From: a virus
UHGV virus genome: UHGV-1657534
Length of the DNA: 14,188 nt
Direction: 5' to 3' (one strand)
A program made the position numbers and the translations under genes. The notes beneath the pieces are model-generated. The model did no database searches. It had not been told where the DNA came from and worked only from the letters and a program-made list of their open reading frames with translations. Below are positions 11,096-14,188 of the stretch, piece by piece (position 1 is the first letter of the stretch; every line of letters begins with the position of its first letter).

Positions 11096-11171
11096 TGGTG
11101 CCGATTAACGGACTCGAACCGCTGACATCCTGCTTACAAGGCAGGCGCTCTACCAACTGAGCTAAACCGGC
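11096..11171 (-). tRNA. tRNA-Thr (anticodon UGU)
   Basis: Minus-strand 76-nt GCCGGTTTAGCTCAGTTGGTAGAGCGCCTGCCTTGTAAGCAGGATGTCAGCGGTTCGAGTCCGTTAATCGGCACCA. Canonical cloverleaf with anticodon loop CTTGTAA and encoded CCA; acceptor arm resembles E. coli tRNA-Thr. Probably the P1 trnT equivalent. Confidence 0.85.
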
Positions 11172-11173
11172 AT

Positions 11174-11249
11174 TGGCGATGGTGGATGGATTTGAACCAT
11201 CGACCCGTTGATTAACAGTCAACCGCTCTAACCGCTGAGCTACACCATC
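11174..11249 (-). tRNA. tRNA-Asn (anticodon GUU)
   Basis: Minus-strand 76-nt GATGGTGTAGCTCAGCGGTTAGAGCGGTTGACTGTTAATCAACGGGTCGATGGTTCAAATCCATCCACCATCGCCA. Perfect acceptor, anticodon (GTTGA/TCAAC) and T stems, anticodon loop CTGTTAA, encoded CCA. Separated from tRNA-Thr by 2 nt. Probably the P1 trnA equivalent. Confidence 0.85.
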
Positions 11250-11904: not shown

Positions 11905-11934
11905 ATATTACACTAATAAATTTATTAGAGCAAT
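11905..11934 (-). promoter_or_regulatory. P1 C1-repressor operator (17/17 consensus match) with overlapping inverted second site, embedded in a sigma70-like promoter
   Basis: The minus strand reads ATTGCTCTAATAAATTT (plus 11918-11934), identical to the P1 C1 operator consensus as I recall it. A second site in opposite orientation, ATTACACTAATAAATTT (plus 11907-11923, 15/17), overlaps it by 6 bp, giving the palindrome CTAATAAATTTATTAG. On the minus strand TTGCTC (-35), a 17-nt spacer and TAATAT (-10, plus 11905-11910) form a promoter reading toward the terminator and tRNA genes. The operator overlaps the last codons and tandem TAA TAA stops of the MTase gene. Confidence 0.6.
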
Positions 11935-14153
11935 ATTGCTATAACGTCATGAGCAACACCTCGAGTGTCCCCCTTACAAGACACAGAACGTCTGGCAAAA
12001 AGAGGTTCCACTCTGAAGCCACTGTCCTGATAAAGTTCTCTGATGTTTGGCGCGCCACTGTTAGTAATGAGAACCTTTGCACCTCGGCGATGAGCATCCG
12101 TCAACAGAGACACCAGGCGTTTTTGCTCTTCAAACTTAAAGTCATGACCGGAATAGTTCGTGAATCCCTCTGTATTTGGGAGCGGTTCATACGGCGGATC
12201 GCAAAAGATGACATCTCCTTCTCCGGCAGCTTCAATCACCGCAGCAAAATCACCACATACAAACTCAGAACGCCCTTCCGCACCAAGGAAGGCTTCCATC
12301 TCCTGCAATGGGAAATACGGAGTTTTATACTTCCCATAACCGACATTGAACTCACCGGCTTGGTTGTAACGCGTCAATCCGTTAAAACAATGTCGGTTCA
12401 GGAACAAAAACGCCGCTGCGCGATGTAAATCATCATAGACTTGTTTGTTAAACGCATTCCGTACTGCCAGGTATCCTTCCTGCGTGTTGTAGTCCTGGAA
12501 GAAACGATGTGCCAGAGTGATAAGTGAATGCGCCTCGCGTTGCAGAGTCTTGTAAAAGTTAATCAGGTCAGCATTCACATCATTTAGCAGATTTTCCTGG
12601 TATCCGGCATTCATGAAGACAGCTCCGCCACCAACGAAAGGTTCAATCAGGCGCTTCCCTTCTGGCAAATAGCGAAAGATTTGTTCCAGAACACCAAATT
12701 TTCCACCAGCCCATTTGAATATGGACCGTTCGAATTCTGCCGCTGGTTTAACTTTTCGCTCTTTTGTTTCACTTCCTTCTTTCTGCCGACATGCAGCCTT
12801 GGTAATCCGCTCGCCAATCCAGCGCATTACTGGTATCGCCATACTATTGCCGATCGCTTTGTAACGAGGTCCGTCAGCTGCAAGCATGGCGGCCTCTTCT
12901 TCACTTAAATCAGGATCGTGATTGCGAAGGTATATAAGTTCATCTGAAGTAACTTTCTTACGCTTTCCCGTTGGAATCAACGTATGTCCATCAGGAAAAC
13001 CTTGCAGCCTTTCACATTCGACAGGAGTCAGACGGCGAACGCTCATCATATGAGGTAAGTAACCATTCTCACCTAATTCGCCTTTTTCAATACTTTCCTG
13101 CCCCCAAAAAGATAACGCAACGGCGTCAGCTGTTGCGCGGGAATCAAGAGTAAAACTTATCTCTTTTTGCCACCCTTTACCCTGCGGTCCAGCATCATCT
13201 TTTCGCCCAATTTGTGCATGTTGTAGCGAATACGCAACAGCTGGTGGGCATCCCGCGTTTTGATTGCTATTAGCAGAGTTACCAGCTCGTAAAGTTGGGG
13301 AAATCTCACCACCCGCATCCTGCCCATAATTTTTGCTTGTAAACGCAATAGCTTTCTTGCAAGAAAACACAATTGGAGCTTCATGATTACAAGTAAGAGT
13401 AGGTGATGTCCCATCATTTTTTATTTCTGCCCCCCCTTGCCCATGCGCCATGCAATACACAAGTCCGCTGCCTCGCTGCGCAAAAATCTCTTGGTTACTT
13501 GCACCAATCCCACCAGTATTGTGTGACTGGTTAAGTGTCGGGTGAGGATTTACAGGGTTATCCCAATGGCTCCCGCTTTTAATGCCATTTCCAACATTTC
13601 CGGCAACTTCCTTCCCCTCGCCTCTGCTCGGCGCAATATCCCGGCGCACGCCTTCGAACTCAAAAAGTACCGTTGCGGGATCGAGGTCTGTTCGAGCACT
13701 TGCGACAACAAACACGCGTCGGCGTCGTTGTGCCACTCCGAAGTATTGGGCATCAAGGATTCTCCAGGCCACTTTTCGCTGCGGTCCATAAATACAACCA
13801 CACTGCGGCCACTTTGGAGCATGGCAACCGGTTTTGACATCCCACCGCCAGAATGCGTTACTTTTTCCTGATTCAGGTCGATCACCTGGTTCGAATGGCG
13901 CATCTTCTCCAGCCAATCCGGCAAGGAAACATCCGAAGGCGTTATCTGCCGATGACAAGACTCCTGGGACATTTTCCCAGACGATAACTGCTGGTTTGAG
14001 AAATGACTCAGCCCGTTTGTCGTCAATTGCATTTGCAAGCTCCACATACTTTAAAGTTAGCGCGCCACGCTCATCATCAAGCCCACCACCTAATCCCGCG
14101 ATACTGAATGCCTGACAAGGTGTTCCCCCGACGAGCACATCAGGGGATTCGAT
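11925..14153 (-). CDS. dmt: bifunctional DNA methyltransferase: C5-cytosine MTase domain fused to Dam-like N6-adenine MTase domain (P1 Dmt-like); 5' end truncated by contig end
   Basis: Single minus-strand frame of about 743 genomic codons. N-terminal part has C5-MTase motifs IV (GTPCQAFSIAG), VI (VIVWENVPG), VIII (VAQRRRRVFVVAS), IX (RRLTPVECERLQGFPDGH) and X (KAIGNSMAIPVMRW). C-terminal part aligns by eye with E. coli Dam (FKWAGGKFGVLEQIFRYLP..EPFVGGGAVFMN...NRHCFNGLTRYNQAGEFNVGYGKYKTPYF...CDPPYEPL). Motif I (FxGxGG) is absent because the ORF runs into the adapter; the ORF-track start is a GTG inside the adapter. Ends in tandem TAA TAA. Confidence 0.85.
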   Translation of the reverse strand: MESPDVLVGGTPCQAFSIAGLGGGLDDERGALTLKYVELANAIDDKRAESFLKPAVIVWENVPGVLSSADNAFGCFLAGLAGEDAPFEPGDRPESGKSNAFWRWDVKTGCHAPKWPQCGCIYGPQRKVAWRILDAQYFGVAQRRRRVFVVASARTDLDPATVLFEFEGVRRDIAPSRGEGKEVAGNVGNGIKSGSHWDNPVNPHPTLNQSHNTGGIGASNQEIFAQRGSGLVYCMAHGQGGAEIKNDGTSPTLTCNHEAPIVFSCKKAIAFTSKNYGQDAGGEISPTLRAGNSANSNQNAGCPPAVAYSLQHAQIGRKDDAGPQGKGWQKEISFTLDSRATADAVALSFWGQESIEKGELGENGYLPHMMSVRRLTPVECERLQGFPDGHTLIPTGKRKKVTSDELIYLRNHDPDLSEEEAAMLAADGPRYKAIGNSMAIPVMRWIGERITKAACRQKEGSETKERKVKPAAEFERSIFKWAGGKFGVLEQIFRYLPEGKRLIEPFVGGGAVFMNAGYQENLLNDVNADLINFYKTLQREAHSLITLAHRFFQDYNTQEGYLAVRNAFNKQVYDDLHRAAAFLFLNRHCFNGLTRYNQAGEFNVGYGKYKTPYFPLQEMEAFLGAEGRSEFVCGDFAAVIEAAGEGDVIFCDPPYEPLPNTEGFTNYSGHDFKFEEQKRLVSLLTDAHRRGAKVLITNSGAPNIRELYQDSGFRVEPLFARRSVSCKGDTRGVAHDVIAILL

Positions 14154-14188
14154 CTTTCTCTTATACACATCTCCGAGCCCACGAGACT
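14154..14188. other. Illumina Nextera adapter / Tn5 mosaic end, reverse-complement copy (sequencing artefact)
   Basis: 14157-14188 TCTCTTATACACATCTCCGAGCCCACGAGACT is the reverse complement of bases 3-34 of the window. There is one mismatch at 14156 and the last 2 nt are absent, so the exact genome/adapter boundary is uncertain within 14153-14157. Confidence 0.9.

Follow-up and report, generated by a model that had tools for sequence, protein, structure and literature searches.

Alleles of the P1-family methyltransferase gene dmt carry different tandem sets of putative target-recognition modules

Known multispecific methyltransferases and the dmt gene

Multispecific C5-cytosine methyltransferases of Bacillus phages were reportedly described by Behrens in 1987 and by Trautner in 1996. 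M.SPRI, M.Phi3TI/M.SPBetaI, M.Rho11sI, M.H2I, and M.BssHII combine one catalytic core with an enlarged region between motifs VIII and IX that holds contiguous modules with a threonine-leucine (TL) motif. The modules of the Bacillus-phage enzymes are roughly 30–50 residues in length, near relatives share the core and differ in the module set, and the enzymes are phage-borne and orphan. Tandem recognition domains are known from multispecific enzymes of Bacillus phages and from M.BssHII (PMC8936443; PMC12707154). In ordinary C5-methyltransferases, a single TL motif is located 10–50 residues before motif IX and contacts DNA, and this motif was used by Trautner's group to delimit the recognition domains of the multispecific enzymes (PMC2413257). 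Here, an array of TL-containing modules is described in Dmt, a DNA methyltransferase of P1-like phage-plasmids, as encoded by UHGV virus genome UHGV-1657534 (14,188 nucleotides, the whole of which is referred to as the window).

By sequence comparison, the reading frame at 11925–14153 on the minus strand is dmt, an already known gene of P1-like (Punavirus) E. coli phage-plasmids. The gene encodes a late-expressed bifunctional DNA methyltransferase, of which the window contains the 3′ 92%. From the stop codon at 11925–11927 the frame is uninterrupted up to position 14153 and past it, and 742 residues are encoded from 14153. The dmt gene of Salmonella phage SJ46 is 96.8% identical to this region at the nucleotide level over the full length, and that of E. 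coli plasmid pMUB-MIN10-2 is 99.6% identical over the full length. P1-like E. coli phage-plasmids are collinear with the entire 14-kb window at 99%, and the gene content of the window (tail and baseplate genes, dbn, the ban helicase gene, three tRNAs, and the C1 operator Oban) fits a phage-plasmid of this type.

The Dmt proteins of SJ46 (YP_009293579.1; 97% amino acid identity) and pMUB-MIN10-2 (WP_208207908.1) represent the same allele as the window, with the A-B-D-E module array described below, the Dam half, and the same neighbourhood; the copy in the window differs by the absence of its first 65 codons and by the sequencing adapter at its end. P1 Dmt (YP_006537.1) and the P7 protein named "Dam" are encoded by the orthologous bifunctional gene, which has the same order of domains, shows about 96% nucleotide identity in both flanks of the variable region, and lies upstream of the C1-controlled ban operator, whereas the entire variable region (about 200 codons) is replaced. 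The initial annotation had proposed a fusion of a C5-methyltransferase with a Dam-type enzyme and had noted a resemblance of its domain architecture to that of P1 Dmt. Both points were borne out: matches to PF00145 and PF02086 were obtained, the C5 half precedes the Dam half in the aligned proteins of SJ46 (807 residues), P1 (754 residues), and the window, and the gene is an allele of the P1 gene. The GenBank note on P1 dmt states that the product "methylates ... GATC ... and perhaps at C5 cytosine", and the fusion is thus on record; the gene, the allele, and the C5/Dam fusion are already in public databases. The gene is carried by 492 PLSDB plasmids and by 243 of 5,426 complete E. coli genomes.

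Recognition modules in the variable region of Dmt

Residues are numbered below from the start of the truncated protein, coordinates are those of the window, and features are on the minus strand unless stated otherwise. Motifs VIII and IX are separated by 224 residues, which contain the motifs HPTL, SPTL, SPTL, and FTL at residues 205, 251, 286, and 334, respectively, in agreement with the approximately 220 residues and four PTL/FTL-type motifs noted in the initial annotation. Four TL dipeptides were obtained in 0.08% of 100,000 composition-preserving shuffles, and four motifs of the PTL or FTL type were obtained in none. At least two contiguous TL modules on one core characterize the multispecific architecture, and four are present here within 224 residues. 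The four TL motifs are located about 167, 121, 86, and 38 residues ahead of motif IX, and only the last of these is within the canonical distance of 10–50 residues.

The variable region begins with a leader (RDIAPSRGEGKEVAGNVGNGIKS; 13575..13643), which contains the left recombination breakpoints of the dmt alleles, where identity to the P1 and P7 types collapses at residues ~166–181. It is followed by module A (GSHWDNPVNPHPTLNQSHNTGGIGASNQEIFAQRGSGLV; 13458..13574) with the first TL motif, module B (MAHGQGGAEIKNDGTSPTLTCNHEAPIV; 13368..13451) with the second, module D (IAFTSKNYGQDAGGEISPTLRAGNSANSNQNAGCPPAVAY; 13230..13349) with the third, and module E (LQHAQIGRKDDAGPQGKGWQKEISFTLDSRATADAV; 13119..13226) with the fourth. 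The scores of these segments against hidden Markov models (HMMs) built for the module families are 89, 70, 82, and 82 bits, respectively. For module A, 86 unique homologous copies were found in which TL is conserved. Module D is common to the allele of plasmid pEC00592_4, and module E is weakly related to families F and E2. The modules are also found in other positions: A is placed after E in some homologues, and D is located before or after E in other proteins.

Between module E and motif IX there is a tail of 26 residues without a TL motif (ALSFWGQESIEKGELGENGYLPHMMS; residues 346–371; 13041..13118), which matches no module HMM and is common to the SJ46 and pEC00592_4 alleles. The dipeptide EL appears in it in place of the TL of the other modules, and the tail may be a spacer or a decayed module. 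By eye, one alignment suggested that the tail is a degenerate form of module F, but neither a shuffle test nor the F HMM supported this origin. A phmmer alignment of the tail with residues 248–272 of M.HhaI was weak (i-Evalue of 2.1) and was not used.

The description of the region as internally repetitive holds only at the level of the TL motif, which is all that the modules share; they are not copies of each other. No pair of modules from the window aligned better than z = 2.5 relative to shuffled sequences, and the only direct DNA repeat in the array was a 19-nucleotide pair with 74% identity, which is at chance level. Recent tandem duplication was rejected as the origin of the array.

The dmt alleles of the P1 family have near-identical catalytic cores (~96–100%) and differing sets of TL modules of 27–40 residues. 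Allele representatives were picked from different match lengths among the dmt-carrying plasmids. The P7-type allele (pY-Ec2) encodes a protein of 672 residues with module B only, and the allele of the window, SJ46, and pMUB-MIN10-2 encodes 807 residues with A-B-D-E and the 26-residue tail. The allele of pEC00592_4 encodes 862 residues with A-B′-G-C-D-E followed by the same tail as in the window, and that of P1 encodes 754 residues with B′-G and two unclassified segments that contain TL or SL. P1 and P7 match 74% of the dmt query in two pieces, as do most of the 492 PLSDB plasmids; query coverage of at least 80% was found for only 43 of the 492.

Sliding nucleotide identity was used to locate the boundaries of the exchanged segments. 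Relative to the P1 and P7 types, an identity of 100% falls at residues ~166–181 and is regained at residue ~371, just ahead of motif IX. Relative to pEC00592_4, identity decays inside module A and is again 100% inside module D (residue ~300). Recombination between the conserved flanks swaps the module set, and different P1-like plasmids therefore carry different sets. Since the core is shared and whole modules are gained, lost, or exchanged between alleles, the variable region behaves like a series of separable modules, arranged in tandem and each with a TL motif, and not like one ordinary target-recognition domain, in keeping with the tandem organization that had been suggested from the motifs.

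Within this one gene, the modules span an about 30-fold range of synonymous divergence, with values of 0.04, 0.53, and 1.4 for modules E, A, and B, respectively. Such unequal values are expected if the modules have separate recombination histories. In module A, 10 synonymous and 0 nonsynonymous substitutions were counted over 39 codons between the window and pEC00592_4. In module B, dS and dN (synonymous and nonsynonymous substitutions per site) are 1.39 and 0.11 between the window and the P7 type, for a dN/dS of 0.08. These counts indicate strong purifying selection on modules A and B. For module D, a dN/dS of 0.31 was obtained in the comparison with pEC00592_4. Across several comparisons, dN/dS is 0.06–0.2 for the catalytic core and the Dam half (C5 core, 0.09–0.2, with 0.09–0.16 for its N-terminal part; Dam half, 0.06–0.1) and 0.6–0.85 for the tail after module E, the latter from only 4–5 substitutions.

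A search with the variable region returned about 3,500 proteins, most of which are standalone phage C5-methyltransferases of about 400 residues from Xenorhabdus, Aeromonas, Pantoea, E. coli, and uncultured Caudoviricetes. The variable regions of the homologues are 89–290 residues in length and by eye are mosaics of the same short blocks. HMMs were built for 17 block families and used to annotate about 125 proteins, among which 60 architectures were found. These include single-module homologues (B alone and A alone) and changes of order, such as K-E-A as opposed to A..E and A-M-C as opposed to A-C-M. In most module families, TL (or CL as its equivalent) ranks with the most conserved positions, and the standalone homologues without a Dam domain keep the same module arrays.

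An exhaustive HMMER search with the array alone, from which the conserved flanks were left out, provided 733 clusters at 50% identity. At E ≤ 1e-10 there were 148 of these, each of which matches a different part of the query. In 41 representatives with both flanking motifs, the variable region has a median length of 259 residues and a maximum of 577, the latter with ten TL motifs, and modules D and E are found in either order. We regard it as an even chance that the P1-family dmt genes and a large family of C5-methyltransferases from phages of Gram-negative bacteria form one combinatorial system of recognition cassettes, in which recombination shuffles at least 17 short TL modules onto one catalytic core, in arrays of one to about ten.

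Variable regions of 420–577 residues, in which the TL motifs number up to ten, are found in three representatives (P0155, P0190, and P0188). Since the 17 module HMMs match no more than two or three segments of each, the full repertoire is much larger than the part that was sampled. In the homologues P0013, P0022, and P0102, the C5 half is fused to PF05869 (T1-type Dam) and not to PF02086; fusions of C5- and N6-adenine methyltransferases thus appear to have originated on more than one occasion and with different adenine methylase partners.

Proposed multispecificity and competing explanations

The C5 half of Dmt may be multispecific and methylate cytosine in up to four sequence contexts through modules A, B, D, and E, beside the adenine of GATC; we assign this reading a probability of about 0.6. 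In the proposed mechanism, the modules would dock singly beside the catalytic cleft and each would recognize its own target, as in the multispecific Bacillus-phage enzymes, so that a single active site could place 5-methylcytosine in up to four contexts. The methylated cytosines would shield the phage DNA against several type II restriction systems while it replicates, and the Dam half would supply the GATC methylation needed for P1 packaging. Packaging of P1 in dam− hosts is known to need the Dam function (PMC12707154). The dmt operon is repressed by C1 via Odmt according to the P1 annotation. This repression could confine methylation to lytic growth and avoid conflict with McrBC/Mrr in the lysogen, and methylation at the lytic stage would guard progeny DNA against the type II systems of the next host. 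The common P7-type allele, in which module B alone suffices, counts in favor of functional modules.

The array has the architecture of the multispecific class and, judged from these alignments, would resemble the Bacillus-phage enzymes in its manner of working and not in its descent. MtbP, the phi3T/SPbeta enzyme, contains SPTLT and AFTVN before motif IX, which is the same pattern as in the Dmt array, and its SPTLT aligns with the T250–L251 loop of M.HhaI. The gene mtbP was not found in the first 50 kb of SPbeta and was located via a tblastn match. Dmt differs from the Bacillus-phage enzymes in its Gram-negative host, the fusion to Dam, a larger module repertoire, and the lack of module homology beyond TL; homology to target-recognition domains of the SPR/phi3T type, examined as a sign of common lineage, was likewise not found beyond that motif. 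In Bacillus phage Hyb2phi3Ts-SPbeta, a second C5-methyltransferase gene (L007:1276-2256, 326 residues) is located directly upstream of the mtbP homologue and is probably that of the monospecific M.Phi3TII.

Several observations weigh against multispecificity. In a BLASTP comparison of the Dmt array with MtbP, only motif IX and an 8-residue match around SPTLT were detected (E = 0.46), and since the match is confined to the motif, no target can be transferred to the Dmt modules. A phmmer comparison of the array alone with the PDB gave no match even at E ≤ 10. The homologue sets were chosen by similarity to the array and are biased toward the modules of the query, which inflates the frequency of module A. 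In the searchable literature no paper on the cytosine specificity of Dmt was found, the P1 note offering only "perhaps at C5 cytosine". Inactive "pseudo-domains" were reportedly described in Bacillus-phage enzymes by Lange et al. in 1991, and some Dmt modules could be silent as well. Structural support was not obtained from the AlphaFold2 models, in which the module region has a pLDDT (predicted local distance difference test score) of 22–45 in both the four-module and the single-module protein. For the C5 half of the window (alignment of 94 sequences) the core is confident, and residues 167–372 have values of 30–45 and no secondary structure. For the complete single-module C5 domain of the P7 type the core is again confident and matches the M.HhaI fold with E = 3.5e-12, and the module region has values of 22–33. 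Because confidence is low even with a single module, it reflects a property of the recognition region without DNA and is not evidence for or against an array.

The strongest competing explanation is that the C5 half is monospecific, with only module E, nearest to motif IX, recognizing DNA, and with A, B, and D as inactive relics or spacers that were carried along by recombination. The FTL of module E is the only TL motif at the canonical distance from motif IX, pseudo-domains are said to exist in the Bacillus-phage enzymes, and the tail after E already looks unconstrained. We nevertheless consider this explanation unlikely: relics or spacers are difficult to reconcile with the strong purifying selection on A (0 nonsynonymous against 10 synonymous substitutions) and B (dN/dS of 0.08), B is the sole module of the common P7-type allele, and the same modules are found at different positions in other proteins.

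The modules could also act jointly, as a composite domain that recognizes one long or degenerate target, given that they are contiguous and without long linkers and that the AlphaFold models, being uninformative, offer nothing structural against a compact fold. The occurrence of one, four, or six modules on the same core in natural alleles, the 60 architectures with permuted order, and the separate histories implied by a synonymous divergence of 0.04 to 1.4 among modules of one gene make such a domain distinctly improbable. A C5 half that is silent or has a non-methylating role, such as DNA binding for the Dam half, so that only GATC methylation matters, is more improbable still: Dam activity is the only one documented for P1 Dmt (PMC12707154; P1 annotation) and the RefSeq name covers the Dam family only, whereas all catalytic motifs within the window are intact, the PCQ cysteine included, the core has a dN/dS of 0.09–0.2 and is confidently modelled as an M.HhaI-like fold, and standalone homologues without Dam retain the same arrays.

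What is new in the comparison of these sequences appears to be the shared dmt core with its different sets of TL modules. In the searchable literature, multispecific C5-methyltransferases were not found outside Bacillus phages and M.BssHII, and tandem exchangeable modules are not stated for Dmt or for C5-methyltransferases of Gram-negative phages; REBASE and some older work are outside this scope, and earlier recognition is possible. If the cassette organization is correct, each phage or phage-plasmid would have its own profile of multitarget 5-methylcytosine protection, multispecific cytosine methylation would be widespread and not a curiosity of Bacillus phages, and the dmt alleles would constitute a module-to-target dictionary. 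Ever since the annotation of the P1 genome, the activity of the C5 half of P1 Dmt has been qualified by "perhaps". The P7-, window-, pEC00592_4-, and P1-type alleles differ only in their modules and thus provide a series of naturally occurring deletions and insertions. In E. coli, Salmonella, and Klebsiella, P1-like phage-plasmids are frequent vehicles of resistance genes, and a variable multitarget methylase could help to decide which restriction barriers they cross. A readable module-to-target code would make the modules parts for engineering the specificity of C5-methyltransferases.

Catalytic halves, contig ends, and neighboring genes

The N-terminal catalytic core of the C5-methyltransferase (residues 1–170 of the truncated protein; 13644..14153) was identified from the translation, a match to PF00145, and a phmmer match to M.HhaI. 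It contains motif IV (PCQ, residues 12–14; 14112–14120), motif VI (ENV, residues 60–62; 13968–13976), and motif VIII (QRRRR, residues 142–146; 13716–13730). The C-terminal part of the core (12789..13040) was identified from the M.HhaI match and from the return of identity to all dmt alleles at residue ~371. It contains motif IX (RRLTPVECERLQGFP, residues 373–387; 12993–13037) and motif X (GNSMAIPV, residues 435–442; 12828–12851). All of the catalytic motifs listed in the initial annotation (PCQ, ENV, QxRxR, IX, and X) were located in canonical order, and PF00145 matches with E = 1.5e-27. The N-terminal core is 100% identical to other dmt alleles at the nucleotide level up to about residues 165–190.

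A Dmt-specific insertion of about 21 residues (DRPESGKSNAFWRWDVKTGCHAPKW; residues 92–116; ~13806–13880) is located between motifs VI and VIII. It is not present in the aligned standalone homologues and forms short strands in the AlphaFold2 models.

The dcm model TIGR00675 scores 92.9 bits on the truncated copy of the window against a cutoff of 100.65, and the module array also splits the match. The RefSeq/PGAP name for Dmt is "Dam family site-specific DNA-(adenine-N6)-methyltransferase" only. The score below the cutoff probably explains why the C5 half is unseen in the annotation of hundreds of plasmids.

The two methyltransferase halves are joined by a Lys/Glu-rich linker of 21 residues (RQKEGSETKERKVKPAAEFER; 12726..12788), which is located between the two Pfam matches and has low pLDDT at the end of the model. 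The Dam-type N6-adenine methyltransferase domain (11928..12725) was identified with PF02086 and TIGR00571. The former matches residues 481–714 with E = 4.5e-57, and the latter provides a full-length match of 251.9 bits against a cutoff of 114.85, with DPPY and the FxGxG motif for S-adenosylmethionine (AdoMet), confirming the complete Dam-like domain that had been recognized from DPPY. The motifs FVGGG and DPPY are located at residues 506–510 (12624–12638) and 652–655 (12189–12200), respectively. The last 266 residues resemble the D12-class enzymes E. coli Dam and T4 Dam in matching the Dam family along its full length, DPPY included; unlike them, the Dam of the window is the C-terminal domain of a fusion protein, and it scores 245.8 bits against the E. 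coli Dam equivalog, below the cutoff of 441. By homology with P1 Dam, GATC is the predicted target of this half.

The last 34 bases of the window are Nextera adapter, and the match to natural sequence stops exactly after 14153. The nonbiological transposase adapter at 14155..14187 (GTCTCGTGGGCTCGGAGATGTGTATAAGAGACAG; no strand assigned) appears as the reverse complement with one mismatch, and the adapter is also found at 4–37 in forward orientation. The window represents a complete short-read contig from which the adapters were not trimmed. Because the bases past 14153 are adapter, the "GTG start at 14168" in the list of open reading frames is an artifact, as are all open reading frame calls that reach into adapter bases at either end of the window. 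The N-terminus and motif I had been placed beyond the end of the contig. They are indeed missing, and alignment to the full-length SJ46 and P1 proteins indicates that the first 65 codons are absent; what had been taken for the contig end is a sequencing adapter, and the 5′ end can be read from near-identical public plasmids (NZ_CP069679.1 and NZ_CP048917.1). Motif I, which binds AdoMet (GSVCSGIEAAS), is present in the full-length SJ46 and P1 proteins, and the pMUB-MIN10-2 protein starts identically.

The dmt stop codon (11925..11927, from the translation) is located inside Oban/Op72ab (ACACTAATAAATTTATTAGAGCAAT; ~11907–11934), the bivalent operator for the C1 repressor in the ban operon, which was assigned with the help of the P1 annotation. 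This operator is conserved, and its overlap with the end of dmt is also seen in P1. The gene rdgC/hrdC, the upstream neighbor of dmt in the P1 family, falls outside the window. Phage tRNA genes for Met (CAT), Thr (TGT), and Asn (GTT) are located on the minus strand at 9020–9095, 11096–11171, and 11174–11249, respectively, in the same positions as in P1, where the tRNA-Met (CAT) of the window is annotated as Ile2. Between the tRNA-Met on the ban side and the tRNA-Thr/Asn pair, an SPFH/Band 7 protein of 275 residues (PF01145, E = 1e-30) is encoded on the minus strand at 9123–9950. This position is occupied by tciA/tciB/tciC in P1 and SJ46 and is a second variable cargo site of the window.

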